Positions 41,781 through 62,008 of a DNA stretch of 64,000 nt are shown here, in pieces. Position numbers and translations under genes: made by a program. The notes under the pieces were generated by a model. The model saw only the letters and a program-made list of their open reading frames with translations, searched no databases and had not been told where the DNA came from. This DNA comes from an uncultured Cytophagia bacterium (GTDB lineage Bacteria; Zhuqueibacterota; Zhuqueibacteria; Zhuqueibacterales; Zhuqueibacteraceae): positions 7,442 to 71,441 of the forward strand of contig CAYZFF010000001.1 of NCBI GenBank assembly GCA_964477305.1. The letters are read 5' to 3'. The first letter of the stretch is position 1. Each line of letters opens with the position of its first letter.

Positions 41781-42551
41781 ATGAGTAACGTTGCGATTTC
41801 CACGCCGCCTTTGCAGCAAGATACCGCCACCGGTGGCTGGTTTAAGCGATTGCTGAACGCGAGTGCGAAAGAATGGAGACTTTCTCCCGGCCTGGTTGCC
41901 ATGCTCTGGTGGGCGCCGGTTGTTATTTTGCTCATCGGTGGCTTGGCGGCGGTAATCGGCGGCAATGTCTACCGCGTGCTTACCGGCGAAGATCGTCTCG
42001 CGGAAAATTTGCAGGTTTACTGCTGGCTGCTCGCGTTTGGCATGGGCTGGTTGGTCATTTCGCGCCTCGGCAAAGCCGGACGGTACGGCATGGCCTTTCT
42101 GTATTTTTGCCTCGTTGCCGGTATTTTTGTCATTATCGGCGAAGAAGTGAGTTGGGGACAAAGGCTGTTCGGCTGGGAAACGCCCGAAGCTTTGAAAGCC
42201 GTCAACCGGCAACACGAAATCAATATCCATAGCCTGGAAGGCATGGTCGACACGTTTCGGTCGCTGTATTTGTTGATTGGCGCCTACGGGACGATTTTAC
42301 CGTTGCTCTTTTGGAAAGCGCGATCGGCGGCTATTTATCAAAAGTTCATTTCTTTGCTGGTGCCGCATATTACACTGGTGCCCTATTTTCTGGCCACCTT
42401 CGCCTGGCGAATCTATCTAAGCTTCTGGAAATTGCCGGAGAAATATTATTTCGAGATTTCAAAGTATTCGGAAGTCGTCGAATTGATTCTCGCGCTGGGA
42501 TTTCTATTGTTTATGAGTTTTCAGTTTAGGAAAATAAAACCGCATGGATAG
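41781..42551 (+). CDS. polytopic membrane protein of unknown family with GEEVSWGQRLFGWET motif (paralogue of 40246)
   Basis: Shares the block FVIIGEEVSWGQRLFGWETPEALKAVNRQHEINIHS...LIGAYGTILPL and has the same topology as ORF 40246. Its stop overlaps the next start by 8 nt. Confidence 0.6.
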   Translation: MSNVAISTPPLQQDTATGGWFKRLLNASAKEWRLSPGLVAMLWWAPVVILLIGGLAAVIGGNVYRVLTGEDRLAENLQVYCWLLAFGMGWLVISRLGKAGRYGMAFLYFCLVAGIFVIIGEEVSWGQRLFGWETPEALKAVNRQHEINIHSLEGMVDTFRSLYLLIGAYGTILPLLFWKARSAAIYQKFISLLVPHITLVPYFLATFAWRIYLSFWKLPEKYYFEISKYSEVVELILALGFLLFMSFQFRKIKPHG

Positions 42552-43872
42552 TTTTCTGCGCCAGGTTTTTGCGGCGCTCGATGAAGCGAAGATCACCTAT
42601 TCTTTGTTGCGTGGCTTTGAGGAGCTGGAAATGCCGGCCGAAAGCAGCGAAGTGGATTTAGTGGTGGCGCCCGCGCATCTGTCGCAACTCGCCCAAACTT
42701 TAGCCGCGAAAGGTTTTGTCGCGCTTCCCGCTTGGGGACACGCCCCGCATCATTTTTTTGTCGCCTATAATCGCGCCACCGGCAGTTGGTTGAAATTCGA
42801 CGTCGTGAGCGCTTTGCGCTACGGCCAACCGTTTCGGACCTTGCACGTCGATTTGCTCGAGAGTTGCTTGCGGAATCGGCAACGCCGCGAATTTACTTAT
42901 GTCCTGGCGCCGGGCGACGAGTTCTTTACGCTTCTCTTGCATTGTTTGCTCGATAAAGGCAACTTTCGTGACGCGCGCCGCGAGCGCCTCATTGAACTGC
43001 GCCGGCAAATGCAAACTAATACTGCCATGCAGAAAAACGTCGCCGAAAATATTGCCCGCTATCTGGCGCCGGCGCTTACTTGGGACATGCTCACCGCGGC
43101 CATTGATCAGGATGACTGGCTGGCACTTTTGCAACGCCGTAAAGCTGTGGCGCGCCGTCTCTTTCAGCGCGCTCCTATGGCCAATACCTGGCGCAAGATT
43201 TCTACGATCATGTTGCGTCGCTTGCGCCCGCTGCTTTTTATGCTCCGTGGCCGCGGCGTCTCGGTTGCTTTACTCGCGCCGGATGGCGCCGGCAAATCGA
43301 CGCTCGCGCAAGCGTTGACAAAGGATCATTTTCTGCGCGCCAAACTGGTTTACATGGGAAGCAATATCGCTGCCAGCACCGTTGGCCTGCCCACGACTAA
43401 ATGGCTCCATCAGCGGCTGAAAGCGCGCAACGGCGTTAAGAAAAAGAAAAAAAATCTTAGCTTTCTCGCGTTGAAAGGTTTCAGCTTCATCAACCGTCTC
43501 GTCGAGCAATGGTATCGCGCCGGCGCCGCGCTGGGTTATTTGTTGCGCGGCCAGCTTGTGGTGTTTGATCGTTATATTTATGACTCGTGGTTGAATAAGC
43601 CGGCCAAAACGCCGTGGAAACGGTTACGCCGTAAAATGTTCGAATCGATTTGCCCGACGCCTGACCTCGTCGTTTTATTGGATGCGCCCGGCAAAATGCT
43701 GTGGGAGCGCAAACACGAGCACACGCCCGAGTGGCTTGAGCAGCAGCGCCACGGCTATCTCGCGCTCAAAGAACGCGTTCCGCAAATGCGGGTGGTCGAT
43801 GCCACGCAGCAGGCCGAATACGTGAAGCGCGAAGTTACAGCGTTGATTTGGGCGCAGCAGCGTTCTCGTTAA
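42544..43872 (+). CDS. two-domain protein: N-terminal uncharacterised-nucleotidyltransferase-like domain fused to P-loop kinase-fold domain
   Basis: The N-terminal half (ITYSLLRGFEELEMPAESSEVDLVVAPAHLSQLAQTLAAKGFV) resembles the PF14907-type nucleotidyltransferase family by eye. The C-terminal half carries Walker A LLAPDGAGKST and is collinear with ORF 39342. Confidence 0.45.
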   Translation: MDSFLRQVFAALDEAKITYSLLRGFEELEMPAESSEVDLVVAPAHLSQLAQTLAAKGFVALPAWGHAPHHFFVAYNRATGSWLKFDVVSALRYGQPFRTLHVDLLESCLRNRQRREFTYVLAPGDEFFTLLLHCLLDKGNFRDARRERLIELRRQMQTNTAMQKNVAENIARYLAPALTWDMLTAAIDQDDWLALLQRRKAVARRLFQRAPMANTWRKISTIMLRRLRPLLFMLRGRGVSVALLAPDGAGKSTLAQALTKDHFLRAKLVYMGSNIAASTVGLPTTKWLHQRLKARNGVKKKKKNLSFLALKGFSFINRLVEQWYRAGAALGYLLRGQLVVFDRYIYDSWLNKPAKTPWKRLRRKMFESICPTPDLVVLLDAPGKMLWERKHEHTPEWLEQQRHGYLALKERVPQMRVVDATQQAEYVKREVTALIWAQQRSR

Positions 43873-43925
43873 AGAGTTATTTCGGGACGCCATCAAATTA
43901 TTTAGTTGAAGAATCATTGCAAAAT

Positions 43926-45503
43926 ATGCCTTCGGAAACTGATATTCAAGAACTGCCTTCCGCCAAAGAATCGGCCAAGCTGGGCCGTATTGGCAAACGC
44001 GACGCAACGAAGAAACAAATTCGTGGCTCCAGTCTGCTGCTCTTCGGCAAGTTGCTGTCGATGGGAATTAACTTCGCTGCACAGGTGGTAATCGTTCGCT
44101 ATCTTTCCAAAACCGATTATGGTGCGTGGGCCTATGCGCTATCGGTCGTCTCTTTTTGTCAAAACATTGCCATCTTCGGCCTCGATCGCGGTATCACGCG
44201 TTTTATTCCGATCTATCACGAGAAGAACGACTATAACAAACTTTTCGGCACGCTGGTTTTGGTTTTTGGATCGATCCTGCTGGCGTGCGGCCTTGTCATC
44301 GCTGCGTTTTATGCGGCGCCGGAACAGGTGGCGCGCCTCATCAACGATAAAGATCAGCCCGTCGCGCTATTGTTTATCATGATTCTACTGTTGCCGACCG
44401 AAGCGCTGGACGCGCTGTTAACCGGTTTGTTTGCCAGCTTCACCAATCCGCGCGCGATTTTTTTTCGCAAACATATTCTCGGCCCGGCAATGCGCTTCGG
44501 CGTCGTGCTGCTCTTGATTTTTTTCAAAAGCACTGTGATTTTTTTGGCGTACGGCTATATTGCCGCCAGCGCTTGTGGGGTGTTGATCTATTGTGTTTTT
44601 CTTTATCGACTGTTGAAGCAAGAAGGCCTCTTTGCGCATTTTAATTTAAAAACCATCAACATTCCGGCAAAAGAAATCTTGGCGTTTACCTTGCCGCTGC
44701 TCTCTTCCGATCTGGTCAACATTTTAACCCATTCCGCGGATACGCTACTGCTCGGATATTTTCATAATGCCAGCGAAGTCGCCTTATATCGCGTCGTTCT
44801 GCCCGCGGCGCATTTTAATAAGTTAGTGATGACGAGTTTTGGATTTCTTTTTACTCCGCTTGCCGCGCGCCTGTTGGCCAACAATGATTTGAAAGCGATC
44901 AACGATTTGTACTGGCGCACGGCCATTTGGATGGGCGTCTTGAGCTTCCCGATTTTTGCATTGACTTTTTCGATGGCGAAACCGTTGACGCAATTTCTTT
45001 ACGGCGAGCGTTATATCGACTCATGGGTTTTCCTGCAACTGATTTCATTTGGATATTATTTCAGCGCCGCGCTCGGTTTCAACGGTTTGACGCTGAAAGT
45101 GTTGGGAAAACTGCGATATATGGTCACCATCAATATTATCGCGGTTATTGTCAATGTCGGCGTTAATCTTGTGCTCATTCCCAAGTACGGTGCATTGGGC
45201 GCGGCGATCGGCACCACCGGCACGATGATCGTTCACAACATTTTCAAGCAGATCGGCTTGCGTTTGACGGCGGGCATCAGCATTTTTGACCGGCAGTACC
45301 TGCCGTTTTATCTGATCATTACCGGTAGTGCCGCTGCATTGTTTCTCATCACGATCTTTCTCTCCGAGAATATCTATATCGCTGTGCCGCTGGTTGCACT
45401 CGCGACTCTTTTCGTCCTGCGAATGGGCAAAGATAAACTCAAAGTCGAGGAAACTTTCCCCGAGTTGTTGAAGCTGCCGTTCATGAAAAAATTGTTGACT
45501 TGA
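43926..45503 (+). CDS. wzx: oligosaccharide-unit flippase (Wzx, MOP superfamily)
   Basis: About 12 TM helices. N-terminus IRGSSLLLFGKLLSMGINFAAQVVIVRYLSKTDYGAWAYALSV is typical of polysaccharide-biosynthesis flippases. I chose ATG 43926 because track start 43848 overlaps the upstream gene. Confidence 0.75.
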   Translation: MPSETDIQELPSAKESAKLGRIGKRDATKKQIRGSSLLLFGKLLSMGINFAAQVVIVRYLSKTDYGAWAYALSVVSFCQNIAIFGLDRGITRFIPIYHEKNDYNKLFGTLVLVFGSILLACGLVIAAFYAAPEQVARLINDKDQPVALLFIMILLLPTEALDALLTGLFASFTNPRAIFFRKHILGPAMRFGVVLLLIFFKSTVIFLAYGYIAASACGVLIYCVFLYRLLKQEGLFAHFNLKTINIPAKEILAFTLPLLSSDLVNILTHSADTLLLGYFHNASEVALYRVVLPAAHFNKLVMTSFGFLFTPLAARLLANNDLKAINDLYWRTAIWMGVLSFPIFALTFSMAKPLTQFLYGERYIDSWVFLQLISFGYYFSAALGFNGLTLKVLGKLRYMVTINIIAVIVNVGVNLVLIPKYGALGAAIGTTGTMIVHNIFKQIGLRLTAGISIFDRQYLPFYLIITGSAAALFLITIFLSENIYIAVPLVALATLFVLRMGKDKLKVEETFPELLKLPFMKKLLT

Positions 45504-45556
45504 GTTGTTGCCAGCAGCTTGTTACTGAAATCTGATTACTGAAAACTGAACACTGG

Positions 45557-47341
45557 ATGTTAGAAAATACCCTCGCCACTGACTTTATTCCCGGTACCAA
45601 TCTCACCGGCGGCCTCGCGCGCGCCTCGTGGCGATTTTTATTGCCCAACCTGGAATTAGATCGCATTGTCTGTTTCGGCGTGCCCTCGGCTGCGACGTTG
45701 AACGTACTTGCCACTATGGGCAAGGAAATGTTGGTGCTTTCTACCAACGCGCCGCAATTGGAGGCCGTTCGGAAAGAGGTTGATTCGCACAACCTCACTT
45801 TGACGCACGTGACGGATTTCACACGACTGCCTTTGCCGGATCGCAGTGTGTCGCTGGTTTTGCTCGCCGGGAAAAAGGAATTGGCGAGTCTCCTGCTCGA
45901 TACGGTATTTCCAGCGGAGTTGAATCGACTGCTCAAAGAAGACGGCGCGATTTACTTCGAGGTAAAAAATCTGTCCGAGCGATCGGTGGCGCGCCAGATG
46001 ATGCATAATCTCGCGGAACTGGGCTTTAAAGGAGTGCGGGAGTTTTGGCTCACACCGTTCAAAGGCGAGTTGCGCACCGCGTTCCCGCTGGATGATCGGA
46101 TGTCCAAATATCTTTTCACCAATGTCTTGTATGGCCAATCCGTAAAAAAACGGGCCTTGAGCCGCGCCGGCGTCATGCTCAGTCAGGCTGGCCTGCTTCG
46201 TCATCTAGCGCCGCGCCGCGCTATTTTCGTGCAACGCTCGTCGGCGCAACTGGAAAAGCAGACGCCGCAATATTTGAACACGCTGGCAAAAAAGGCGGGC
46301 GTCGATTTATCCGCCATGTCCTGCGGCCTTTCGGCGCGAGGAAAATTTAACGCCAACAAAAACATTTTTTATTTGTTTGATGCCGGCAAAGGGGAGAAAG
46401 CCCGGGCCGTCGTTAAAATGACGCGCGCGACCGACTTCAATAAACGTTTGGAGAATGAGTATCGCGTACTTGCGAAACTCCATCAAAATGGCTTTGTCGA
46501 CAAAGGCACCTATCCCGAGCCTTTATTCTACGGCACCCATGCCGGTCTCGCCATTCTCGGGCAAATGGCCGTCTACGGCGAACCGTTCCGCAGCCGCACT
46601 AAAGCGACCATTGATTGCCCCATTGCCAATGACGCCCTCAATTGGATCGTGAAGCTCGGCGCCGCTTCGGCGAATACCGCCGCGGCCGCTTCTGCTGAAG
46701 TTGAAGCCGCAATGATGAAACTGTATCGTCGCTTCGCGGAGATTTATCCGCTGACCAATGCCGAAGCCGATTTTCTCGTTGAGCAAATTAAAACGATCGG
46801 CCGGGTCTCAAAAAAATTCCCTTTGGTTTTTCAGCACGGCGATCCCGGCACGTGGAACATGCTGGTCTCCCCGGAAAATCGCGTTATCGTCATTGATTGG
46901 GAAGCGGGCGAACCCGAAGGCATGCCGTTGTGGGATCTGTTTTATTTCACGCGCACCTACGGCAGTTGGATGTCGCGTATGCAAGGCAGCCGCAATCCGC
47001 TCAAAAATTTTACGCAACATTTTCTCGAACCCTCGCCGTTGCACGAGTTGCTGCTTGCCACCCTCCGGCGTTATTGTCAGGGCGTCGGCCTGGCGCCGGC
47101 TTTAATTGCGCCGCTCTTTTATACCTGCTGGATGCATCGCGCGCTCAAAGAGTCGACGCGTTTGCAAACAGATGGATTAATTCAAGGCACTTTTTTTACC
47201 TTGCTCCGGCATTGCATTGAGCATTACAATACCGCTGCCCTGCAAACTCTTTTTTCGCTGAGCACGAACAACCAGGCCTCAAGCTCCGATGACAAAAATT
47301 CAGCCGGAGTGAATCAATTAAAAGTGAATGCCGGTTTGTAA
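45557..47341 (+). CDS. fusion of a degenerate Rossmann/methyltransferase-like N-domain and an aminoglycoside/choline-kinase-like (APH fold) phosphotransferase domain
   Basis: The C-terminal half has APH-type catalytic and Mg motifs: FQHGDPGTWNMLVSPENRVIVIDWEAGEPEGMPLWDLFYF. The N-terminal half (RIVCFGVPSAATLNVLATMG...LVLLAG...LKEDGAIYFEV) looks like a class I methyltransferase fold without a clean GxGxG. Confidence 0.55.
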   Translation: MLENTLATDFIPGTNLTGGLARASWRFLLPNLELDRIVCFGVPSAATLNVLATMGKEMLVLSTNAPQLEAVRKEVDSHNLTLTHVTDFTRLPLPDRSVSLVLLAGKKELASLLLDTVFPAELNRLLKEDGAIYFEVKNLSERSVARQMMHNLAELGFKGVREFWLTPFKGELRTAFPLDDRMSKYLFTNVLYGQSVKKRALSRAGVMLSQAGLLRHLAPRRAIFVQRSSAQLEKQTPQYLNTLAKKAGVDLSAMSCGLSARGKFNANKNIFYLFDAGKGEKARAVVKMTRATDFNKRLENEYRVLAKLHQNGFVDKGTYPEPLFYGTHAGLAILGQMAVYGEPFRSRTKATIDCPIANDALNWIVKLGAASANTAAAASAEVEAAMMKLYRRFAEIYPLTNAEADFLVEQIKTIGRVSKKFPLVFQHGDPGTWNMLVSPENRVIVIDWEAGEPEGMPLWDLFYFTRTYGSWMSRMQGSRNPLKNFTQHFLEPSPLHELLLATLRRYCQGVGLAPALIAPLFYTCWMHRALKESTRLQTDGLIQGTFFTLLRHCIEHYNTAALQTLFSLSTNNQASSSDDKNSAGVNQLKVNAGL

Positions 47342-47446
47342 GAAATTTTGAGGTTCCAGCGCGATTTTATATTTCGGGAATTTTTGTTCCGGGCCCAATG
47401 TTGCTGCGAGTTGCAGTCGGATTTAAATTAGAGTATTTAACTTTTT

Positions 47447-48502
47447 ATGTTGCGTGTTTCATGTTTGAAGAATAGACTGAAAATTCGGTTGAATTTTTTT
47501 ATTCTTGCCGTTGCGGTAACTTCTTGTTCGGCGCAAATCGGCATTTGGACGTCCGCAGCCGAGTTGGAAAAAATTCCAACTTCCGGCCCGGCGTGGGACG
47601 CCGTTTTAATGGGGGCGAGCCAGGATTGCGCCCATCCGGAGGTTGCCAATCCAGACGACGACACCAACGTGTACGTTCTCGCCGCCGCCATTGTCTACGC
47701 ACGCACCGGCGATAGCCGCTATAAAAATAAAGTAATCGCTGCTTGTGACCAACTGGTTGCCAAAGGCAACCCCGGCGGCCTTACTCTTGCGTGGGGCCGC
47801 GAAGTCGGCGCGTATGCGATGGCAGCGGATTTAGCCGGTTACCGCACCCCGGCATTTGAAAAATGGTTGCGTCACATGGCCGAAGTGTACAAAGATGATG
47901 AGGGCAACACGCTGCAAAAAACATTCAAGCGCCGCGCCAACAACTGGGGATCACATGCATTCGGTGCGCTGTGCGCGATTTATCGTTATCTCAATGACAA
48001 AGCGGCGCTCACTGCGATTCGGGAGTATTGGAGTAAAGGCGTAACCGGCCCCAATCCCGGCTATAAATTCGGCGATGATATTTCATGGCATGTGGATGAA
48101 AACAATCTGCGCCTATTCAATCCCAAAGGCGCCGTGAAAAAAAATATTAACCTCGACGGCGCCATGCCGGATGATCTGCGCCGTGGCGGCAAACTGCAGA
48201 ATCCGCCCGGGCACACGAATTATGCGTGGGGTTTTATGCAAGGGCAGGTCATGGCCGCGAGAATTCTCGAGCGCGCCGGCATGCCGATCTGGGCCGTCGG
48301 TGATAGCGCCCTCTATCGCGCCGCATATTGTTTACAGGTTCGGTTTGAAAAACTTTACGGCGGTTGGGCCGCACACGGCGACGACGAATGGCTCTTGCCG
48401 TTTTTGGACAAAGCTTACGGCGCCCAATGGGCGCAGCAGCAAAAAAAAATATGGCAACATGGCAAAAATGCCGGTTGGGGATATGTGACTTTAAGTAAAT
48501 AA
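47447..48502 (+). CDS. alginate-lyase-family-like (alpha/alpha toroid) secreted or lipoprotein; free-standing paralogue of the domain embedded in proteins C and E
   Basis: The signal with Cys (FILAVAVTSCSAQ) is followed by IGIWTSAAELEKIPTSGPAW, VYVLAAAIVYARTGDSRYKNKVIAAC, RRANNWGSHAFGALCAIYRYL, DGAMPDDLRRGG and GKNAGWGY. It is collinear with 21059..22012 and 30078..31028. Confidence 0.5.
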   Translation: MLRVSCLKNRLKIRLNFFILAVAVTSCSAQIGIWTSAAELEKIPTSGPAWDAVLMGASQDCAHPEVANPDDDTNVYVLAAAIVYARTGDSRYKNKVIAACDQLVAKGNPGGLTLAWGREVGAYAMAADLAGYRTPAFEKWLRHMAEVYKDDEGNTLQKTFKRRANNWGSHAFGALCAIYRYLNDKAALTAIREYWSKGVTGPNPGYKFGDDISWHVDENNLRLFNPKGAVKKNINLDGAMPDDLRRGGKLQNPPGHTNYAWGFMQGQVMAARILERAGMPIWAVGDSALYRAAYCLQVRFEKLYGGWAAHGDDEWLLPFLDKAYGAQWAQQQKKIWQHGKNAGWGYVTLSK

Positions 48503-48588
48503 CATTTTACCGAAGATTTGAGAAGTTAAGATTTGCAATATGTTAACATGAAATTAACTGCAGCCATACGGCCTCACCTCAAAACAAA

Positions 48589-50106
48589 ATGAAAACTCTC
48601 GCCAGTTCCCCGTCCGTTCCCGCCCATCGCGACGGAGGGAAAAAACTCTTTGTGTTTACTGCAGTGATCGCTTTGATCGGCGCCGCGGCTTACTTTGTTT
48701 CGAAAGATCAAATCATCCTGTTAATCGGCGGAGTGGTTGCCTTGAGTGCCGTTTATTTTCTTTTTAAAAAACCGGAATTTGCAACACTGGTTTTTGCCGC
48801 CATCCTCTATGCCAACCTCGCGGTCATTGCCGTGCAATTTTATCACGTGCCGCAAATCGCTGCCGCCGGTGTTTCCGGCCTGCTCGTGTTGCCGCTGGCA
48901 AATTTTTTAATTGTGCGGCATGAGAAATTGATTTTCAATTTTGGTTTTTTTCTGGCGCTGCTTTATTTTGGCGCACTCGTCGCCGCTTCACTGCTGGCGC
49001 GCGACATGAACATCGCCATGAATGAATTGGGCAATTTTTTAGCCGAAGGTTTGATTCTTTATTTCTTGCTCATCAACGTTATGCGCGAGCTTTCGACACT
49101 CAAGCGCGTGATCTGGACCCTGCTCATTGTTGGCAGCGTTTTGGGCAGCCTCTCACTTTTTCAGGAGGCGACCAAAAGTTACGACAACAATTACGGCGGC
49201 CTGGCGCAAAAAAGCGACGATATCGACATGTCGGACATCAAGGTCGACGAATATGGCGGCTCGCGCCGCGCCGGTGGGCCGCTTGGCAAGGAAAATCGCT
49301 ATGCGCAAATCATGGTCGTGATTTTTCCACTCGCATTGTGCATGGCATACATCGAACCGACGCGCAAACGGCGGCTGCTCGCCCTCGTTACTGCGGGCTT
49401 GATTCTCGGCGGCATCGTGCTCACCTTTTCGCGCGGCGCTTTTGTAACGCTCGCGGGCATGGTGCTGATCATGGTCTTTTTACGTTATATTCGGCCAACG
49501 CAAGCGCTCGGCGGCATCGCCTTGCTGGTTATGGCAATCCTTACTGTGCTGCCGGAATATGTTGAGCGCGTCAGTTCCGTGACGAATTTATCTTCGGTGG
49601 TCTCGCAGGACAGTGAAGGCACGCGCGAGGCCGACGGTTCCTTGCGCGGCCGCTTCGCGCAAAATCTTGCCGCCGTGCGCGTGTTTTTTGAGCATCCGTT
49701 TTTAGGCGTCGGCCCCGGACACTTTGCCAAATTTTATTCCGCGCGTTACGGCAACGAAGTCGGCACCAAGCGCCTCATCAGCAACCGCCGCGCACACAGC
49801 CTTTATCTCGAAATGTTGGCGGATACCGGGCTTACGGGCACGTTCGCTTTTATGCTCGTCGTTTTTTTTACGGCTCGCGGACTGTGGCACGCGCGCCGTC
49901 GCTTTATGCAAACGCGGCCCGATCTCGTGCATATCGCCACCGCGCTTTTGCTCGGCATTTTTAATTATTTTGGCACCGCCACATTTTTGCATTTATCTTA
50001 TCAGCGTTATTATTGGTTTTTAATGGCCCTCGCCGCGGCCGCGCTGTTGATTTTTGAAAAGGAAGGAAAGTTAATCCCCTCGGTCCAGCCGCAAGCCGCT
50101 GCATAA
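48589..50106 (+). CDS. O-antigen ligase/polymerase family (Wzy-like) membrane protein
   Basis: About 10 or more TM helices. Wzy_C-like core ALVTAGLILGGIVLTFSRGAFVTLAGMVLIMV and a large loop with R/H residues (RRAHSLYLEMLADTG). Confidence 0.7.
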   Translation: MKTLASSPSVPAHRDGGKKLFVFTAVIALIGAAAYFVSKDQIILLIGGVVALSAVYFLFKKPEFATLVFAAILYANLAVIAVQFYHVPQIAAAGVSGLLVLPLANFLIVRHEKLIFNFGFFLALLYFGALVAASLLARDMNIAMNELGNFLAEGLILYFLLINVMRELSTLKRVIWTLLIVGSVLGSLSLFQEATKSYDNNYGGLAQKSDDIDMSDIKVDEYGGSRRAGGPLGKENRYAQIMVVIFPLALCMAYIEPTRKRRLLALVTAGLILGGIVLTFSRGAFVTLAGMVLIMVFLRYIRPTQALGGIALLVMAILTVLPEYVERVSSVTNLSSVVSQDSEGTREADGSLRGRFAQNLAAVRVFFEHPFLGVGPGHFAKFYSARYGNEVGTKRLISNRRAHSLYLEMLADTGLTGTFAFMLVVFFTARGLWHARRRFMQTRPDLVHIATALLLGIFNYFGTATFLHLSYQRYYWFLMALAAAALLIFEKEGKLIPSVQPQAAA

Positions 50107-50256: not shown

Positions 50257-52419
50257 ATGAGCAAAGAAATCTGGTGTACCCTCGGCCCGGCGTCGCTTAA
50301 CGACCGGGTGATTGGCCGTCTTGAGGAATTGGGCGTGAGTTTATTCCGCTTGAATCTGTCGCACACCAAACTGGAAAAAGTCGCGGAGATCGTCGAGTTC
50401 ATTCAGACGCGCACCAAAGTGCCGGTGTGTTTGGATTCCGAAGGCGCGCAGGTTCGCACCAGCGATCTCCCCGGCGGCAAAGTTGTCGTGCGCGAGAATA
50501 ACACCATTCGCATTCATTTCAAACGCGTTCCCGGCGACGCGACGGACATGAATCTCAATCCCGACAACATTGCGAAACAATTGGAAGTCGGCGATTTGCT
50601 CAAGATCGATGCGGAAGTTTTAGCGCAAGTCGTTGCCCTTGAAAGCGAATGGGTTGTGCTTTGGGTTTTGAATGGCGGGGAAATCGGCCAGAACAAGGCC
50701 GTGACCATTCTTGAGCGCGATCTCATTATGCCCGCGATGACGGAGAAAGATCGCAAAGCCCTCGCCATCGGCAACAAAATGGGCGTGCGGCATGTCGCGC
50801 TCTCTTTTGCGAACCACGCAGCCGATGTGGAGGAAGTCCGCGCGCTGGTTGGACGCGACACGATGATTACTTCCAAAATTGAATGCTTGAACGGCTTGCA
50901 CCACCTGCCGGAGATCACTGCGAAATCCGATGCGCTGCTCATCGACCGCGGCGATTTGTCGAGACAGGTCAATATCGAAAAAATTCCGGCGCTGCAAAAG
51001 GATATTATTCGGCACGCCAAAGTTGCGGGCAAAAGAATTTACGTTGCAACCAATTTGCTCGAATCGATGGTCACCTCGCCCAACCCGACGCGCGCGGAAG
51101 TCAACGATGTGTTCAACACGCTGATGGATGGCGCTGACGGCCTCGTGTTAGCAGCGGAAACCGCGATTGGCGCGTTCCCCGTCGCGGCTGCCATGATGGT
51201 GCGAAAAGTGATGCGCGAATATGAGAATAAACAAAGCTGGAAACAATTTCATTATACCTCCGCGCCGATCTCGACGCTGGTTGAACCGCACGGCGGTTTT
51301 CTCATTACTCGTGAAAACCGTCCCGTCGCGAATGGGGCCATCCAAAACCTGCGCACGTTGCCGGTGAAAGATGCCGACTTGATGGACTGCGTACAGATTG
51401 CCAACGGCACTTATTCGCCGCTCACCGGCTTTATGGGTTCTCGAGAGCTTGCCAGTGTGCTCAATAACAATCGTTTGCTTAACGGCCAAATCTGGACGAT
51501 GCCGATTGTCCTGCAAGCCGATGCGGAAGCATTAGCCAATATTTCCGCGGGCGACGTCATTGCGTTGACGGATGCGAATGCCAAAATTTACGCGACGATG
51601 AATGTGTGCGAAATTTACGCTTTTGATTTTAATGAAGTCGCGCAAAAATGGTTCGGCACGACTTCGCACCAGCATTCCGGCGTCAAAAAATTGGCAGAAA
51701 ACGGCGGCCTTTTTGTCGCAGGTGAAGTGACCCTCGTGGACAAGTTAGCCTCGGCGTATGCGCAATATGAATTAAGCCCGCGCCAGACGCGCATGATTTT
51801 CGCCCAAAAAGGCTGGAGCCGCATCGTTGGTTTTCAGGCCGCCAGCGTGCCGAATCGTCTGCAAGAATACGCGCAGATCCGCGCGCTCGAAGCTGCGCAT
51901 GCCGACGGTATTTTTATCAGCCCGCTGATTGGCACACCACCTTCCGGTGGGTTTCTGCCGGAGCCGATTATTAAAAGCTACCAGCTTTTGCTTAATAATA
52001 GCGTTTACCCCGCCGGGAAAATTTTGCTCGGCGCTTCGTTCGCCTATCCGCGTTGCTGCGGTCCGCGCGAAACGGTTTTTACGGCGCTCTGTTTCAAAAA
52101 TATGGGGTGCAGCCATTTTATCGTCGAACATGACAACGGCCATTTCGACGGATTTTACGACGATGCGCAAACACGCGAGCTTTTTAAAAGCCTCGGCGAC
52201 CTTGGAATCACGCCGATTTTTTTCGACGCCATCGAATACAATCCCGAGACGCAAAATTATTTTGAATCCAAATCGGCGAAAACCATGGCGATGAGCGATA
52301 AGGCGATTCAAGCCGCGTTGCTTAACGAAGAAGCTTTGCCGGAATGGATCATGCGCAACGTTGTGCAGGAAATGTTGAAAAAAGAAATTTCAGAGAATCG
52401 TTCGATTTTTTATTTGTAG
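50257..52419 (+). CDS. fusion protein: pyruvate-kinase-like TIM-barrel domain (no C-terminal allosteric domain) + full-length ATP-sulfurylase-like domain with substituted catalytic motifs
   Basis: PK landmarks are retained: IWCTLGPAS, RLNLSH, CLDSEGAQVR, SKIECLNG, IDRGDL, VATNLLESM, NPTRAEVNDV, AAETAIGAFP. The Sat-like part is LVEPHGGFL, YSPLTGFM, then GFQAASVPNRLQEY (canonical FQTRNPxHRAH), SPLIGTPPSGG (canonical HPLxGxTKxxD) and GPRETVFTALCFKNMGCSHFIVEHDNGH (canonical GPREAxxHAxxRxNxGxTHFIVGRDHAG). Confidence 0.65.
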   Translation: MSKEIWCTLGPASLNDRVIGRLEELGVSLFRLNLSHTKLEKVAEIVEFIQTRTKVPVCLDSEGAQVRTSDLPGGKVVVRENNTIRIHFKRVPGDATDMNLNPDNIAKQLEVGDLLKIDAEVLAQVVALESEWVVLWVLNGGEIGQNKAVTILERDLIMPAMTEKDRKALAIGNKMGVRHVALSFANHAADVEEVRALVGRDTMITSKIECLNGLHHLPEITAKSDALLIDRGDLSRQVNIEKIPALQKDIIRHAKVAGKRIYVATNLLESMVTSPNPTRAEVNDVFNTLMDGADGLVLAAETAIGAFPVAAAMMVRKVMREYENKQSWKQFHYTSAPISTLVEPHGGFLITRENRPVANGAIQNLRTLPVKDADLMDCVQIANGTYSPLTGFMGSRELASVLNNNRLLNGQIWTMPIVLQADAEALANISAGDVIALTDANAKIYATMNVCEIYAFDFNEVAQKWFGTTSHQHSGVKKLAENGGLFVAGEVTLVDKLASAYAQYELSPRQTRMIFAQKGWSRIVGFQAASVPNRLQEYAQIRALEAAHADGIFISPLIGTPPSGGFLPEPIIKSYQLLLNNSVYPAGKILLGASFAYPRCCGPRETVFTALCFKNMGCSHFIVEHDNGHFDGFYDDAQTRELFKSLGDLGITPIFFDAIEYNPETQNYFESKSAKTMAMSDKAIQAALLNEEALPEWIMRNVVQEMLKKEISENRSIFYL

Positions 52420-52573: not shown

Positions 52574-53482
52574 ATGATCACTTTTGATCGCCCCCTCATG
52601 ATCACCTGCACGGGCCGCAGCGGTTCAACGGTTTTTTACCGCATTCTTGCCCGGCATCGCGAGTTGGGTTTTTTATCGACCCTCAATCAACAATTTCCCA
52701 CGCAAACTTGGATGGGGATTTTTTCGCGATTGTACCCGATGCCGCTTTTTAGCAGCATTCGCGATCATCGCCTGTTTCCGAAACCGTTCAGCCCGTACAA
52801 TTTCTGGCAGCAGTATTTGCCGGACGTCACGCGCCATGATCGGCCGCTGTATCCTGAAGACGTGCAGGAAGCCATGATCGAGCCTTTGCGCCGGAAAGTT
52901 TCAACGCTTCTCAAGCTGCAGGGCAAAAAACGATTTTTGATGAAAGTCACCGGCTGGGCGCGGATGGCTTATTTCGAGCGCGTGTTCACCGGCATGCGTT
53001 TTATTTATCTCAAGCGCCTGCCGCGTGACGTCGTCTCGTCCTGGATTCAAGCCGGCTGGCTGAACGTCACTGCCGCTCCGGACAGCGACAAATGGGAGTG
53101 GGGAAAAATTCCCGACGAATATCTTACGATTTGGCGCGACCTCGGCAAGAAACCGATTCTCGCCGCCGCGATCAAAACGCAATTGGATATCGATGACATT
53201 CGTCGCAACATGGCGCTGTTCCCGAATCGCTGCACGGAGCATAATTACGAAGATTTCGTCAAAGATCCGGTTCCGATTTTACGCGAAGTGACAAAATTCT
53301 GTGAGCTCGAATGGTATCCGGAATTTGAAAATATTATTCGGCGCACGGAGATTTACAACTTTGCCGACAAGTGGAAAAAATTTATGACCGAAGAGGAAGG
53401 CGAGTTAATCGCAGAATTTTACGCCCGCGTTAATCGTGTCAACCACGCCAAACGTCCGCAGCCGGTTTATCAGCCTGCGTAA
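52574..53482 (+). CDS. sulfotransferase family protein
   Basis: 5'-PSB-like P-loop LMITCTGRSGSTVFYRILARH. 3'-PB-like YLKRLPRDVVSSW. Size and layout match cytosolic Sulfotransfer_3-type enzymes. Confidence 0.7.
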   Translation: MITFDRPLMITCTGRSGSTVFYRILARHRELGFLSTLNQQFPTQTWMGIFSRLYPMPLFSSIRDHRLFPKPFSPYNFWQQYLPDVTRHDRPLYPEDVQEAMIEPLRRKVSTLLKLQGKKRFLMKVTGWARMAYFERVFTGMRFIYLKRLPRDVVSSWIQAGWLNVTAAPDSDKWEWGKIPDEYLTIWRDLGKKPILAAAIKTQLDIDDIRRNMALFPNRCTEHNYEDFVKDPVPILREVTKFCELEWYPEFENIIRRTEIYNFADKWKKFMTEEEGELIAEFYARVNRVNHAKRPQPVYQPA

Positions 53483-53561: not shown

Positions 53562-54866
53562 ATGAACGCCAACTCGATCACCATTGCCGAGCACGAGCTG
53601 ACTCGGTTTTTTTTTGCGATTACCCTGTTGCTGGTTCTCGCCCATAGCTTAGGGTACGTCTTCAATAAATTGAAACTGCCCAAAGTCGTCGGCGAGATTT
53701 GCGGCGGCCTGTTGCTCGGCCCCACCGTGTTGGGGACGCTTTCCCCGGAAAGTTACAATTGGCTGTTCAATGCGTTCGCGTTTGAAGGGAAACTGCTGTC
53801 GATCGTTTATTGGCTCGGCCTCGTGCTGCTGATGTTCGTCTCCGGCTTCGAAATCAAAATGTCGTTGGACAAAGACGATAAAAAGATCATCATCGCTTTA
53901 CTCGTCGGCTCGACCGTGCCATTCATCGCCGGCTGGATTGCGCCATATTTTTTTGATTTTTCACGGCTGTTGGGCGAGAAACAAAATATGCTGGCGTTGA
54001 AAATCGTTATCGGCATTGCTGTCGCCGTTACTTCGATTCCGGTCATTTCGAAGATCTTTCTCGATTTAAACATCATGCAGACGCGTTTCGCGCGTATCAT
54101 CTTGACGACGGCGACGATTCATGACGTCTTTTTGTGGGTGGCGCTGGCGATCGCTACCGGCCTGGTGAGCGCGACGAGTTATTCGATGACGCACATCGTT
54201 TCCACTGTCTGCGTGTCGTTTGCCTTTCTTGGCGTGTCGCTTATGGTGATGCCGAAAATTTTGCCGATTTTGACGGGCAATCGTTATAATCTGGTGCGCA
54301 AATCTTCCAGCGCCGGTTATATTCTTTTTCTCTGTTTTCTGTTTTCAGCGGTCGCGAGCCTGTTAAACGTCAATATCATCTTCGGCGCATTTTTGGCAGG
54401 CGTCGCGATTGGGGTGTTGCCCGCAAGTTTCAATAAAGAGAAAGATCATGTCAAAGAAATCGCGCTGGCATTTTTTACACCGCTCTATTTCGCCATCGTC
54501 GGTTTGAAATTGGATTTGATTCATCAGTTCGATCTCAAGTTTTTTCTATTCTTTTTGTTGTTCTCGGCCGTGTTTGAAACGCTCGGCACGCTGGCTGCCG
54601 CAAAATCTTTGAAGAAAGATTGGCTGACGAGCTTCAACTTCGCGGTCGCGATGAACACGCGCGGCGGCCCCGGCATCGTGCTCGCCACCATCGCGTACGA
54701 TCTTGGCATTATCAGCGCAACGTTTTTTGTCACGCTGGTAATGATTGCGATCATCACTTCGCTGCTCGCCGGAATGTGGTTCAAGTTTGTTTTGGCGCGC
54801 GGTTACGAGTTGTTAAAAGAGGCGCCTGTGAAGTCCGGCGTACGGGAAAAGAGCTTTCAGATTTAA
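53562..54866 (+). CDS. monovalent cation:proton antiporter (CPA2 / Na+/H+ exchanger family)
   Basis: About 12 TM helices. N-terminal motif LKLPKVVGEICGGLLLGPTVLG is typical of Kef/NapA-type exchangers. Confidence 0.75.
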   Translation: MNANSITIAEHELTRFFFAITLLLVLAHSLGYVFNKLKLPKVVGEICGGLLLGPTVLGTLSPESYNWLFNAFAFEGKLLSIVYWLGLVLLMFVSGFEIKMSLDKDDKKIIIALLVGSTVPFIAGWIAPYFFDFSRLLGEKQNMLALKIVIGIAVAVTSIPVISKIFLDLNIMQTRFARIILTTATIHDVFLWVALAIATGLVSATSYSMTHIVSTVCVSFAFLGVSLMVMPKILPILTGNRYNLVRKSSSAGYILFLCFLFSAVASLLNVNIIFGAFLAGVAIGVLPASFNKEKDHVKEIALAFFTPLYFAIVGLKLDLIHQFDLKFFLFFLLFSAVFETLGTLAAAKSLKKDWLTSFNFAVAMNTRGGPGIVLATIAYDLGIISATFFVTLVMIAIITSLLAGMWFKFVLARGYELLKEAPVKSGVREKSFQI

Positions 54867-54880: not shown

Positions 54881-56116
54881 ATGCAAACCAAACGAATTTT
54901 TCTCTACGGCTCCATTTTAGCGGGCAGTTTAGTTTTCGGCTATCTCGGCAGCAATTATTTTCTCGAGCAGGTGAATACCTCGCTGGTTTATTATGATCCG
55001 GGAAAAACTTTAGCTATTGGAACGCCCTCCGCCAAAGCCACATCGTTGCCGCTGTTGCCCGATCAGCAAATCCGCAATATCATTCTCTTCATCGGCGACG
55101 GCATGGGATTGAGTCATCTCACCGCGGCGCGCATCAATTCATTTGGGCCGGACGGCAGATTTCATCTCGAGCATATGCCAGTGACGGGCTTGGTGACGAC
55201 ACATGCCGTCGATAACCTCATCACTGATTCTGCCGCCGCAGGAACGGCGCTCGCCACCGGCGTGAAAACCACGAACGGCAGCATCGGCGTGGATTCAAGC
55301 GGCACGAGTCATCTGACGATTTTGGAAGCCGCGCGCGATGCGGGCCTGGCAACGGGCTTGGTGACGACGACGTATATCACCGACGCCACACCCGCGACTT
55401 TTGCCGCGCATGTGAGAAGCCGCGCGATGAAGGACGAAATCGCGCTGCAGTTGCTCAACGCGCGCGTGAATATTTTATTCGGCGAAGGCGATCATTTTTA
55501 TCCGAAAACCGATTCCCGCAGCGCCAGAAAAGATGGCGAGAATCCTCTCACGCTCGCCAAGGCATTGGGCTATACGCTTGTCGAAAAAAAAGAAGATCTG
55601 GTCAATGCGAATGCCAATTTTCTGCTCGGCCTGTTTCCAGATTTGACTACCGATAGAATGAAGCCGGAATTGCAATCGCCGCCGCAAACGCCGAGCTTGG
55701 CAGAAATGGCGGCGAAAGCGATTGAAGTTTTGCATCGCAATGAAAAGGGGTTTTTTCTGATGGTGGAAGAGGAAGGCGTGGATATGGGCAGCCATGTCAA
55801 TCGCGAGGATTATTTCATTCATCATTTGAATCGTTTGGATGAAGCGATCAAAGTCGGGCTCGATTTTGCGGCGCGCAATGGGCAAACCTTGGTGCTCGTC
55901 ACTGCCGATCACGAAACCGGCGGGGTGAATATCATCGGCGGTGTGAAAAGAAAAAATAAAGTAAAGTTGTCATGGGCCACCGATCGCCATACCGGCCAAC
56001 CCGTGCCGCTGTTTGCCTACGGTCCGCACGCGCTGCGCTTCACCGGCTTAAAAGATAATACGGAAATTCCCAAGATGATGGCGGAGTTGCTGCAATTGGA
56101 AAAATTTCCCCAATAG
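54881..56116 (+). CDS. alkaline phosphatase (PhoA family), N-terminally membrane-anchored or secreted
   Basis: Motifs: ILFIGDGMGLSHLTAARI, active-site Ser region LITDSAAAGTALATGVKT, EEEGVDMGSH, TADHETGG. Track ORF 54620 overlaps the antiporter; ATG 54881 gives a hydrophobic N-terminus MQTKRIFLYGSILAGSLVFGYLG. Confidence 0.85.
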   Translation: MQTKRIFLYGSILAGSLVFGYLGSNYFLEQVNTSLVYYDPGKTLAIGTPSAKATSLPLLPDQQIRNIILFIGDGMGLSHLTAARINSFGPDGRFHLEHMPVTGLVTTHAVDNLITDSAAAGTALATGVKTTNGSIGVDSSGTSHLTILEAARDAGLATGLVTTTYITDATPATFAAHVRSRAMKDEIALQLLNARVNILFGEGDHFYPKTDSRSARKDGENPLTLAKALGYTLVEKKEDLVNANANFLLGLFPDLTTDRMKPELQSPPQTPSLAEMAAKAIEVLHRNEKGFFLMVEEEGVDMGSHVNREDYFIHHLNRLDEAIKVGLDFAARNGQTLVLVTADHETGGVNIIGGVKRKNKVKLSWATDRHTGQPVPLFAYGPHALRFTGLKDNTEIPKMMAELLQLEKFPQ

Positions 56117-58894: not shown

Positions 58895-58968
58895 TGGTTG
58901 CACGGATTCGCTGAACACTGAACGTTTTTGTTTTAATTTATCATATTTAATTTAAGGAAAACCGGTTT

Positions 58969-59658
58969 ATGGATAAGCTGCAGATGACATTCGAGCAGTT
59001 CTTGACCACCCAGAGTGTGCAGGTTTCGGTTTGGGACTTTGTCTTAAATTTAGTTTTATCCGCGATTCTCGCATATTTGTTGAGCTTGGTTTACGCCAAA
59101 TACGGACACTCGCTTTCTAACCGCAAAATGTTTGCGCGGAATTTTATGCTCATTACGATGGCGACAATGTTGATTATCTCCATTGTCAAAGCCTCGCTGG
59201 CGTTGTCACTTGGCCTCGTCGGCGCGCTCTCTATCGTGCGCTTTCGCGCGGCGATCAAAGAGCCGGAAGAGCTGGCGTATTTGTTTCTTGCCATCGGCAT
59301 CGGCCTCGGTTTCGGCGCGGATCAACGGCTCGTCACCACCGTGGCGTTTGCCATCATCTTCGGGATGATTTGGCTGCGCAGCCGCTCGCGCGCCGGACGG
59401 GAAAATCATTCATTGTATTTGACGCTTACCAGCCGTAATCCCAGCAAAGTCGAATTGGATCGTATCGTCGAAACATTGCAAAAACATTGCGCCACCGCGA
59501 GCATCAAACGTTTTGACGAAAACAAAGACGTGTTGGAAGCCTCGTTTTTGGTTGAAGTCGATAATTACGAAAAATTGAATCAGAGCAAAGCCGAGTTGCG
59601 AAAGCTGAACGACGCGATGACGATCAGCTTCATGCAGAATAACGGCATGTTGTCGTAA
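58969..59658 (+). CDS. DUF4956-domain membrane protein (copy 1)
   Basis: TM helices plus the signature LSLGLVGALSIVRFRAAIKEPEELAYLFLAIGIGLGFGA. Its stop overlaps the next start (TAATG). Confidence 0.7.
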   Translation: MDKLQMTFEQFLTTQSVQVSVWDFVLNLVLSAILAYLLSLVYAKYGHSLSNRKMFARNFMLITMATMLIISIVKASLALSLGLVGALSIVRFRAAIKEPEELAYLFLAIGIGLGFGADQRLVTTVAFAIIFGMIWLRSRSRAGRENHSLYLTLTSRNPSKVELDRIVETLQKHCATASIKRFDENKDVLEASFLVEVDNYEKLNQSKAELRKLNDAMTISFMQNNGMLS

Positions 59659-60524: not shown

Positions 60525-60526
60525 TT

Positions 60527-61297: not shown

Positions 61298-61336
61298 ATT
61301 CTAACAACTTTAAAGGAAATCGCAGGAGCACCTTCT

Positions 61337-62008
61337 ATGAATCCTTCCAGTGTATTAAAAATTGATTTGACCCCCGGCCAAGTGGCATTGAGCTTCTTGC
61401 TCGCGTTTTCGCTGGCGTTTATCTGGGCAACGGTCTATCGCAAAACCCACAGCGGCGTCGCCTACACGCGCTCGTTTTTTCTGACGTTGCTGTTGATTGC
61501 ACCGATTGTAACGATGGTGATGATGGCCATTGGCAGCAACGTGGCGCTGTCACTCGGCTTGGTCGGTTCCTTGTCCGTCATTCGTTTTCGCACCGTCATT
61601 AAAGACTCCAAAGACATGGTGTTCTTGTTCCTGGCCATTGCCATTGGCTTGTGTACCGGCGCCAATGCCTGGTTGGTCGCGGCTATCGGCACGGGCGCGA
61701 TTTCCTTGATTGCGTTGCTGATGTCGAAGATCGGCCACGCGGGAGCCGGCTCGGCGGACTATATTTTGATCTTCCGCTCGAATCAAAAAGAGCCGTGGAA
61801 TTTGTTGTCGCCGACGGCGCAAGATTTAATTCCGTGGAAGCAATTGCGCGGCGTGACGGATGTGGATTCCGGCACCGAGTTCGAGTATACGTACAACGTG
61901 CGCTTGGCCGCCAAAACTTCGCCGGAACGCCTTATCGGTGAATTTAGCAAGAACGGCGCGATGAAGCAAGTGACGATGATCACCCCGGAGAATCATTTGG
62001 ATCTGTAA
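61337..62008 (+). CDS. DUF4956-domain membrane protein (copy 2)
   Basis: Signature LSLGLVGSLSVIRFRTVIKDSKDMVFLFLAIAIGLCTGA. Collinear with ORF 58969. Confidence 0.7.
   Translation: MNPSSVLKIDLTPGQVALSFLLAFSLAFIWATVYRKTHSGVAYTRSFFLTLLLIAPIVTMVMMAIGSNVALSLGLVGSLSVIRFRTVIKDSKDMVFLFLAIAIGLCTGANAWLVAAIGTGAISLIALLMSKIGHAGAGSADYILIFRSNQKEPWNLLSPTAQDLIPWKQLRGVTDVDSGTEFEYTYNVRLAAKTSPERLIGEFSKNGAMKQVTMITPENHLDL

Follow-up and report, generated by a model that had tools for sequence, protein, structure and literature searches.

A predicted pyruvate kinase with a decayed ATP-sulfurylase domain, from a widespread fusion family tied to sulfate activation

The 64-kb stretch of DNA analysed here, from an uncultured bacterium and referred to as the window, carries at 50257-52419 a gene whose product joins a pyruvate kinase (PK) barrel to an ATP sulfurylase (Sat) module with a decayed active site. 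A preliminary description made from the sequence had proposed one protein with a PK-like barrel fused to a Sat-like module, lacking the C-terminal regulatory domain of PK and collinear with a complete ATP sulfurylase from about 51262 onwards. The single open reading frame (ORF) and its Pfam domains agree with the first of these points, the absence of a PK_C match with the second, and an end-to-end alignment to a solved Sat (PDB 8a8d) with the third. The gene is organised as follows.

50257..52419, + strand: whole gene for the fusion of PK barrel, PUA-like domain and pseudo-ATP-sulfurylase; a single uninterrupted ORF of 720 amino acids with Pfam domains, its architecture shared by 187 full-length homologues
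50266..51189, + strand: PK A/B barrel, residues 4-311 (PF00224, E 6e-68), with all catalytic residues and without PK_C
51232..51273, + strand: inter-domain linker, residues 326-339; predicted local distance difference test score (pLDDT) <50 in the structural model, variable in the alignment
51283..51741, + strand: PUA-like N-domain of ATP sulfurylase (PUA_2), residues 343-495 (PF14306, E 2e-38), fully conserved
51763..52383, + strand: ATP-sulfurylase catalytic-domain fold with a decayed active site (pseudo-Sat), residues 503-709 (PF01747, E 2e-43)

The Pfam order is PK barrel, PUA-like domain and Sat catalytic domain, with the Sat-like module directly after the barrel and no Pfam match to the C-terminal regulatory domain PK_C (PF02887) in the protein. 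The PF00224 match spans profile positions 5-327 of 328, and both halves score under the curated NCBIfam equivalog cut-offs (PK, TIGR01064, 265.1 bits versus 306.4; Sat, TIGR00339, 224.1 bits versus 322.95). An AlphaFold2 model built with a 30-sequence family alignment has a pLDDT of 87.4 and a predicted template modelling score (pTM) of 0.80, and is uncertain only at the linker (326-339) and at the former GRDHAG loop (626-629). The preliminary description had allowed that a sequencing frameshift might have joined two genes; such a frameshift or mis-assembly was rejected on the continuous ORF and the 187 full-length homologues of equal architecture.

In both sequence and structural alignments every hallmark motif of Sat proved to be substituted, as had been described. 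Three stretches, identified from the alignments, hold the degenerate motifs.

51829..51870, + strand: degenerate QTRNxxHxxH motif, GFQAASVPNRLQEY (family consensus GFHTRNVPHRVHE)
51916..51954, + strand: degenerate HPxxGxxKxxD motif, ISPLIGTPPSGGF (family consensus ISPVIGPKKxGDF)
52060..52158, + strand: degenerate GPREAxxTAxxRKN ... GRDHTG motifs, GPRETVFTALCFKN ... IVEHDNGHFDGFY, with low model confidence in the loop at residues 626-629

In a residue-level alignment to the solved Sat of M. thermolithotrophicus (8a8d), which served as the reference, FQTRNvPHlgHEY is replaced by FQAASvPNrlQEY in the window protein, PvIGkkkkGD by PlIGtppsGG, GPREaihHaimrKN by GPREtvfTalcfKN and ivGRDHAG by ivEHDNGH. 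Residues 527-536 read QAASVPNRLQ, the R, the N and both H of QTRN(P)xHxxH being gone, and SPLIGTPPSGG and EHDNGH stand where HPxxGxxKxxD and GRDHAG would be expected. The Sat half of the model superposes on 8a8d with a TM-score of 0.92 and a root-mean-square deviation (rmsd) of 2.0 Å over 378 columns (Foldseek). We considered whether intact motifs might lie in a shifted register, which would have overturned the preliminary description; hidden Markov model (HMM) alignments to five solved Sats and the Foldseek superposition restored no motif, and this was rejected. With all its catalytic motifs substituted, the domain is predicted to be incapable of adenylylating sulfate in the canonical way, in line with the earlier expectation that it was unlikely to make adenosine 5'-phosphosulfate (APS) canonically.

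The active-site landmarks of the PK half had been described as mostly kept, and alignment to PDB pyruvate kinases shows that all 12 catalytic positions checked are present (R31, N33, S35, H36, D60, R67, K147, K207, E209, D233, T265 and E301). In the order given, and leaving H36 aside, these correspond to the catalytic, metal, phosphoenolpyruvate (PEP) and ADP residues R72, N74, S76, D112, R119, K206, K269, E271, D295, T327 and E363 of rabbit PK, and in the AlphaFold model the PK half superposes on PKM2 and PykF at an rmsd of 2.2-3.0 Å (Foldseek). The signatures D[ST]EGAQ[IV]R, ATNL[LM]ESM and AAETAIG found in the PK half across the family take the forms DSEGAQVR, ATNLLESM and AAETAIG here. The protein thus resembles canonical PKs (PykF, PykA, PKM) in its A and B domains, catalytic residues and fold. 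It differs from them in lacking the C-terminal allosteric and tetramerisation domain, in the family-specific D[ST]EGAQ[IV]R and ATNL[LM]ESM and in its sub-cut-off TIGR01064 score, and its identity to a housekeeping PK, whose gene lies 9 kb away from another family member, is only about 30%. Our preferred reading is that of a predicted active PK that carries a pseudo-Sat domain.

The window protein is a derived member of a large, widespread and uncharacterised family, a wider finding than a single fusion. Among 5.8 billion proteins searched, over 120 full-length ones share this architecture and are 51-96% identical to the window protein from end to end. Exhaustive phmmer comparison of the Sat half with 1.84 billion cluster representatives (50% identity) gave 282 matches at E <= 1e-30, the best 150 of which include 61 with a PK domain of >200 amino acids and 20 more with a truncated one. 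Carriers span the Verrucomicrobiota, Bacteroidota, Acidobacteriota and Alpha-, Beta- and Gammaproteobacteria, include the cultured Methyloversatilis discipulorum, Ensifer adhaerens and Sinorhizobium chiapasense, and are named by annotation pipelines only as "pyruvate kinase" or "ATP sulfurylase". Close relatives of the window fusion sit in metagenome-assembled genomes that are binned inconsistently, as Cytophagia, KSB1, Planctomycetaceae and Gammaproteobacteria. The preliminary description knew of no characterised PK::Sat fusion, and we likewise found none in full-text literature searches, with most subscription journals outside their reach. The survey of fusion architectures that it had recommended did bring out other PK::Sat fusions (187 were aligned), but most of them keep an intact Sat.

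We scored the Sat state of these 187 full-length fusions at six key Sat residues, calling a site intact if at least five were kept, degenerate if two or fewer were, and partial otherwise; 145 are intact, 37 degenerate and 5 partial. The family-consensus Sat motifs are near-canonical (GFHTRNVPHRVHE, SPVIGPKKxGDF, GPREAVFTALCRKN and VGRDHTG), and the 12 catalytic residues of PK are retained in 179 of the 187 members, all Sat-dead lineages included. A neighbour-joining tree of the PK half only, with losses inferred by parsimony, gives an intact Sat as the ancestral state, followed by six independent losses in every one of which PK was kept. The window protein falls inside this tree, in a monophyletic Sat-dead clade of 34 sequences that includes the partly decayed P0019 and P0021.

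The fused Sats are almost uniformly of one type (50 H-type representatives versus 1 Q-type). This H-type subfamily has His in place of the Q of QTRN (FHTRN), Thr in place of the His of GPREAxxH, and GRDHTG in place of GRDHAG; the Q-to-H change falls at a sulfate-binding position, and stand-alone Sats of about 380-405 amino acids with the same signature exist (P0121, P0127). The signature FHTRN ... FTA ... GRDHTG is found in 145 of the 187 members and is decayed in the window's clade. Variant architectures comprise PK::PUA::Sat::APS-kinase triple fusions (P0142, which adjoins a sulfotransferase, P0172 and P0178), a PUA::Sat::PK fusion of reversed order beside an ATP-binding cassette (ABC) transporter and cysD/cysN-like genes (P0229), a PK+PK_C::Sat fusion (P0160) and a phosphodiesterase::PK::Sat fusion (P0218). 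The PK domains of these variants are mutually only 28-43% identical, those of P0229 and P0160 resembling housekeeping PKs. These sequences show repeated, independent recruitment of different PKs to a single Sat subtype, which points to ordinary PK chemistry (PEP + ADP -> ATP + pyruvate) as the selected property.

We then compared intact and Sat-dead members position by position. Eighteen positions that are at least 90% conserved in intact members are lost in the window's clade, all of them in Sat active-site motifs (H527, R529, N530, H533, H536, P556, K562, D565, F594, A606, T609, R613, G624, R625, G629, I679, G681 and R685), whereas the PUA domain has lost none of its intact-conserved positions there and the PK half shows two conservative changes. 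The lost positions vary inside the clade, the majority residue reaching only 31-69% and no new motif being fixed; 41 positions of the Sat catalytic domain stay conserved, and the residues newly conserved in the clade fall at positions that are variable elsewhere in the family. In intact members the Sat catalytic domain keeps pace with the PK barrel (identities of 0.74 for PK versus 0.76 for Sat, and of 0.86 versus 0.87), and it lags only in the Sat-dead clade (0.76 versus 0.61, 0.86 versus 0.75 and 0.95 versus 0.85). Ratios of non-synonymous to synonymous substitution (dN/dS, Nei-Gojobori) inside the clade are 0.015-0.07 for PK, 0.07-0.22 for PUA and 0.06-0.17 for the Sat catalytic domain, the closer pairs alone being informative as several dS values are near or beyond saturation. 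The pseudo-Sat half is thus relaxed about 2-3 fold relative to PK and still strongly constrained, as a maintained non-catalytic domain and not a decaying remnant.

Variable lost positions in a domain evolving 2-3 times faster than PK indicate relaxed constraint rather than a new specificity. This bears on a suggestion of the preliminary description, namely nucleotidylyl transfer by the Sat-like domain to a different anion, such as a phospho- or carboxy-acid produced by the PK-like half. In favour of such an enzyme, the domain keeps its fold and is under selection, and a few motif-flanking residues (GF..EY, P.IG, GPRE and KN) remain. However, both HxxH histidines and the R/N pair are gone from the window protein; a new site would be expected to be re-fixed, whereas close relatives read QAASVPNRLQ, QTSQIPNCLH, HAGHLPNRLH and HAHSVPHRAH at this point; and the same decay has taken place six times with different outcomes. 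We find this proposal scarcely credible. A pseudoenzyme domain, another of the possibilities originally raised, fits the decayed and variable Sat site.

Such a domain might also act as an allosteric sensor, replacing the PK C-domain and binding sulfate, APS, 3'-phosphoadenosine 5'-phosphosulfate (PAPS) or 3'-phosphoadenosine 5'-phosphate (PAP) to tune PK. The pseudo-Sat occupies the place of the absent regulatory PK_C, and purifying selection has conserved the PUA-like domain and the 41 catalytic-domain positions; the arrangement would mirror the fungal ATP sulfurylase that MacRae et al. (cited in PMC3734648) reportedly found to carry a dead APS-kinase-like regulatory domain. Yet the canonical nucleotide/sulfate pocket is the very part that has decayed and that varies in the clade, where no new conserved pocket residues were detected, and the loop at 626-629 is predicted to be disordered. 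A sensor role is therefore doubtful.

Next to the fusion lie the following genes.

42544..50106, + strand: upstream co-directional polysaccharide genes (Pfam) for a thymidylate-kinase-like P-loop protein, a Wzx flippase, a methyltransferase/APH kinase, an alginate-lyase-like protein and a Wzy polymerase
52574..53482, + strand: sulfotransferase (Sulfotransfer_3, Pfam E 4e-13), with a 5'-phosphosulfate-binding (5'-PSB)-like GRSGST and a 3'-phosphate-binding (3'-PB)-like RLPRDVVSS read from the translation
53562..54866, + strand: membrane transporter of the Na_H_Exchanger family (PF00999, E 8e-46)
54881..56116, + strand: alkaline-phosphatase-family protein (PF00245, E 2e-87) with an N-terminal hydrophobic anchor and the methionine of MQTKR as its likely start; in the same place in L109 and L110

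The next gene is thus a sulfotransferase, as the preliminary description had read it; a PDB sequence search with this protein gave no match. The upstream polysaccharide gene set recurs in loci L110 and L007 and partly in L109. To place these neighbours in the family as a whole, we took a census over 10 kb on either side of the fusion in 86 loci, from six-frame ORFs and HMMs built by iteration; four loci, with three truncated fusion genes and one independent partial case (L072), were tallied apart. Among the 71 intact-Sat loci, 27 have an APS kinase (18 directly adjacent, 1 fused), 18 a sulfotransferase, 11 a Na_H_Exchanger protein and 4 a TauE protein. The 11 Sat-dead loci of the window's clade have no APS kinase, 6 Na_H_Exchanger proteins and 1 TauE, and a sulfotransferase lies directly 3' of the fusion in 7 of the 9 clade loci whose flank is long enough, as well as in L109 and L110. 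No cysD, cysN or cysH was found in the 86 loci. The window conforms to the family pattern in having a sulfotransferase and a transporter directly 3', with no APS kinase among its neighbours.

Sulfotransferases adjoin the fusion in L001, L004, L109-L113 and many metagenome loci. In Methyloversatilis the order is fusion, sulfotransferase, TauE, HD_4 and sulfotransferase, and in L004 it is fusion, sulfotransferase, epimerase, Na_H_Exchanger, Wzx and Wzy. Two loci of the Sat-dead clade, L109 and L110, read fusion, sulfotransferase, Na_H_Exchanger and alkaline phosphatase, with CotH, Wzx, APH and Wzy near, and L110 has a second sulfotransferase ahead of the alkaline phosphatase; in the independently degenerate L111 and L112, both within polysaccharide clusters, the fusion adjoins sulfotransferases. 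The Ensifer adhaerens fusion (CTYH.Ch1, NZ_CP118611.1 774667-776820) keeps intact motifs and forms a tight operon with an APS kinase and, as the third gene, a Na_H_Exchanger-family transporter (HMM E 1e-157).

Some of these partners merit comment in their own right. The Na_H_Exchanger-family (PF00999) protein is a conserved partner of the fusion across phyla (the window, L115 11787-13073, L109, L110, L111 and L004) and its role could be sulfate import or provision of the K+ required by pyruvate kinases. In the Methyloversatilis discipulorum cassette (L001 13159-14514), a TauE/SafE-family anion permease and a small HD_4 protein, similar to RelA/SpoT-type 3'-pyrophosphohydrolases, stand between the two sulfotransferases, and the HD_4 protein could clear the by-product PAP. 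Enzymes of the alkaline-phosphatase superfamily recur with H-type Sat: a type I phosphodiesterase/nucleotide pyrophosphatase is fused in P0218 (to PK::Sat) and P0263 (to Sat alone) and is adjacent in L112 (13089-14294) and L114 (10241-10966). These enzymes might remove pyrophosphate (PPi) or PAP; the window copy (54881-56116) has an N-terminal membrane anchor or signal.

The intact Sat in 145 of the 187 members, the adjacent or fused APS kinases, the sulfotransferases and the transporter together identify the family as a PAPS-supply module. It is tied to PAPS synthesis for glycan sulfotransferases, with PK and APS kinase complementary to each other and not alternatives. A general role of the PK barrel as a replacement for APS kinase across the family was rejected on the triple fusions and the adjacent APS kinases. 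The same can be asked of the Sat-dead lineages, in which PK might phosphorylate APS or another sulfation intermediate from PEP while the pseudo-Sat holds APS: none of their loci has an APS kinase within 10 kb, yet a sulfotransferase of the PAPS type adjoins the fusion, PK is never the half that decays, and there is precedent for a dead Sat-like domain on an APS kinase. However, PK and a genuine APS kinase share an operon or polypeptide in much of the family, which makes them complementary rather than redundant. No meaningful convergent changes were found in the PK half across the six Sat-dead lineages; 1-8 of 118 intact-conserved PK positions deviate, the catalytic residues are untouched, and R67 and K147, which contact the ADP beta-phosphate, are unchanged. 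The pseudo-Sat, for its part, has lost the phosphosulfate-holding residues R529, N530, H533, H536 and R625.

Phosphorylation of APS by this PK is quite unlikely on this evidence. Equally unlikely is the more general claim that PK in the Sat-dead lineages without a linked APS kinase is a PEP-dependent sulfonucleotide kinase, to which the pseudo-Sat presents the nucleotide, or, less radically, that the whole family is a natural PEP-coupled PAPS synthase complex. The former, if true, would add an unrecognised, third type to the APS kinases and let PEP drive the entry into sulfation, and the latter would be a third drive for sulfate activation beside the pyrophosphatase pull and CysN GTP hydrolysis. 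The preliminary description had also entertained a new PEP-dependent route of donor activation, which does not suit the ancestral and majority state of an intact Sat paired with an ordinary APS kinase, in which PK is added to the usual PAPS route.

The window protein might instead be a cluster-dedicated PK isozyme that feeds ATP or pyruvate to the enzymes of the polysaccharide locus, its Sat half a leftover with no link to sulfation. In favour of this, the Sat site has lost its catalytic residues, sulfate-activation genes are absent from the surroundings, and kinases abound in the locus (GHMP, APH-type, two P-loop kinases, CotH and a Wzc-like protein). Against this, the sulfotransferase is directly 3' in 7 of 9 clade loci and adjacent again in the independently degenerate L111 and L112; such adjacency across independent Sat losses argues that the sulfation link has been kept. 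The same transporter partner is, moreover, found in the clearly PAPS-making Ensifer operon. We regard such an isozyme as unlikely.

Taken jointly, the observations are best explained, at a probability of roughly 55%, by a PK::Sat family that supplies PAPS with local regeneration of ATP, and in which the window member is an active PK on a pseudo-Sat scaffold. In the ancestral and majority form, Sat would make APS and a neighbouring or fused APS kinase would turn it into PAPS. The PK half would carry out ordinary PEP + ADP chemistry, its probable role being ATP regeneration and ADP removal for sulfate activation: using PEP, it would reconvert inhibitory ADP to ATP at the sulfate-activating complex, and the removal of ADP would draw an energetically uphill pathway onwards. 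The Sat site has decayed in the lineage of the window protein, where the domain would be kept as a structural, oligomerisation or docking scaffold in the place of the missing PK C-domain. The C-domain is needed for PK tetramers. Most simply, the pseudo-Sat domain may be a scaffold, by analogy with dead Sat-like domains fused to APS kinases, which are proposed to stabilise a hexamer (PMC13213808, citing Gay et al. 2009). In line with the suggested role of PK, an engineered cascade in which PAPS synthase worked without PK and PEP accumulated ADP and made practically no PAPS, whereas PAPS rose markedly with PK (PMC9885120).

A tblastn search of the 64-kb window with E. coli CysC, CysD, CysN and CysH, a canonical Sat, an APS-kinase domain and a full PK matched the fusion only, and APS_kinase (PF01583) has no match in the fusion protein or the window. 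With the Sat step lost and no sat, cysDN, cysC or cysH in these 64 kb, both APS and PAPS for the adjacent sulfotransferase must be supplied by genes outside the window.

Several points weigh against the PAPS-supply interpretation. For every family member the PK role is deduced from gene fusion and synteny, and the scaffold role is argued by analogy. None of the 11 Sat-dead loci has an APS kinase or a Sat gene inside 10 kb of the fusion, nor do L109-L112, and the entire 64-kb window is equally devoid of them; this makes ATP regeneration least secure for the window protein, and the intact-Sat loci L039, L043 and L095 are also without a nearby APS kinase. We note that cytoplasmic ADP is normally recycled by bulk metabolism, and the benefit of a dedicated PK would rest on local or complex-level effects.

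The fusion can be set beside other arrangements of sulfate activation. We know of no PAPS synthase that carries a PK domain. Like the bifunctional PAPS synthases and Sat-APS kinase fusions (human PAPSS1/2, Aquifex aeolicus 2gks, Penicillium chrysogenum 1i2d), the protein joins Sat to a partner from the same pathway, and the wider family includes chains with an APS kinase (PK::Sat::APS-kinase); the window protein itself, which has neither an APS-kinase domain nor a working Sat site, falls outside that class. A closer likeness is offered by the two-domain APS kinases of T. denitrificans (PDB 3cr8; Gay, Segel & Fisher 2009) and E. histolytica (PMC13213808), in which a dead but complete Sat fold sits on an active pathway kinase and is thought to serve assembly or regulation. 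There, however, the kinase is a C-terminal P-loop APS kinase, whereas in the window protein it is an N-terminal TIM-barrel PK; 3cr8 matches by sequence only the PUA part of the window protein, and the two are independent evolutionary events. As regards this SLD-type class, the window protein shares the Sat fold without catalytic motifs, but its partner is a PK barrel and not an APS kinase (PF01583).

CysDN, a GTPase-coupled ATP sulfurylase, meets the same thermodynamic obstacle by linking the formation of APS to another, exergonic nucleotide reaction within a single complex. Its CysD is of an unrelated fold (PAPS_reduct family) and the coupling goes through GTP hydrolysis by CysN; the window and the 86 census loci have no cysD/cysN, the sole exception lying beside the reversed-order fusion. 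Engineered PAPS cascades with PK/PEP regeneration of ATP (PMC9885120) combine the same activities, namely Sat, APS kinase and pyruvate kinase followed by a sulfotransferase, but they are man-made mixtures of separate enzymes, whereas here there is a natural fusion or operon in which, in the window's lineage, Sat activity has been lost. The PK::Sat family thus resembles sulfate-activating complexes with an auxiliary energy-coupling module, seen here in a dead-Sat form; the coupling mechanism is the part that we infer.

Sulfate activation is thermodynamically very unfavourable and is driven by pyrophosphate hydrolysis, the pull of APS kinase or GTP hydrolysis by CysDN. That PK has repeatedly been fused to Sat, before or after it and in some cases together with an APS kinase, suggests a further natural drive through PEP-driven ATP regeneration and ADP removal, a trick that bioengineers independently found necessary for PAPS synthesis in vitro. 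Under the automatic names "pyruvate kinase" and "ATP sulfurylase", metabolic reconstructions miscount both glycolytic PKs and sulfate-activating enzymes, and the window's clade would be wrongly scored as Sat-positive. Furthermore, six independent decays of the Sat site with PK kept provide a natural experiment in pseudoenzyme evolution, the cultured carriers (Ensifer adhaerens, Sinorhizobium chiapasense and Methyloversatilis discipulorum) make the hypothesis directly testable, and PK::Sat enzymes could serve in one-pot production of PAPS.

The window as a whole is one large polysaccharide locus, with GNVR/Wzz-like and Wzc-like P-loop proteins, a priming transferase, glycosyltransferases, Wzx and Wzy, and with sugar-nucleotide genes of a possible heptose-type pathway (NTP_transferase, GHMP kinase, HAD and SIS). 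Two ORFs on the + strand, 39342-40079 and 42544-43872, are P-loop kinase-like with only weak similarity to thymidylate kinase, PRK or dNK; among the unassigned ORFs of the locus, no others could stand for an absent nucleotide or APS-type kinase. As hidden APS kinases they gave weak thymidylate-kinase-like matches only, with no APS_kinase in Pfam or PDB searches. The kinase-like domain of the second, a 442-amino-acid protein, covers residues 247-430, its N-terminal half has no assigned domain, and the ORF is kept in the Sat-dead cassette (453 amino acids in L109, 445 in L110). At 45557-47341 (+), a protein of 594 amino acids combines a methyltransferase-like N-domain with an APH-type kinase domain; it stands beside Wzx and Wzy in L005, L007, L109 and L110 and may be a sugar or polysaccharide kinase.

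Downstream of the alkaline-phosphatase gene, 56213-62907 (+) encodes a CotH-kinase/beta-helix protein, DUF4956, a metallophosphoesterase with a twin-arginine translocation (TAT) signal, VTC, DUF4956 and VTC. This association of CotH, VTC and DUF4956 also adjoins the Sat-dead cassette in L109 and L110, and the VTC domains suggest polyphosphate chemistry tied to the exopolysaccharide locus. A beta-propeller phytase with a C-terminal sorting domain of the type IX secretion system (T9SS) is encoded at 9833-11266 (+). It is followed at 11651-37676 (+) by six consecutive giant ORFs of 856-1712 amino acids with multiple Flg_new_2 (divergent InlB B-repeat) domains and C-terminal T9SS tails (Por_Secre_tail, CHU_C, FlgD_ig); two of them have an internal alginate-lyase-like domain, two TIG and one F5/8 type C. 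Together they make up a paralogous array of secreted or surface proteins within the polysaccharide locus, and the T9SS tails point to a bacterium of the FCB group. Finally, all real-looking genes of the window lie on the + strand and the cumulative GC skew rises monotonically, an unusually long co-directional block.

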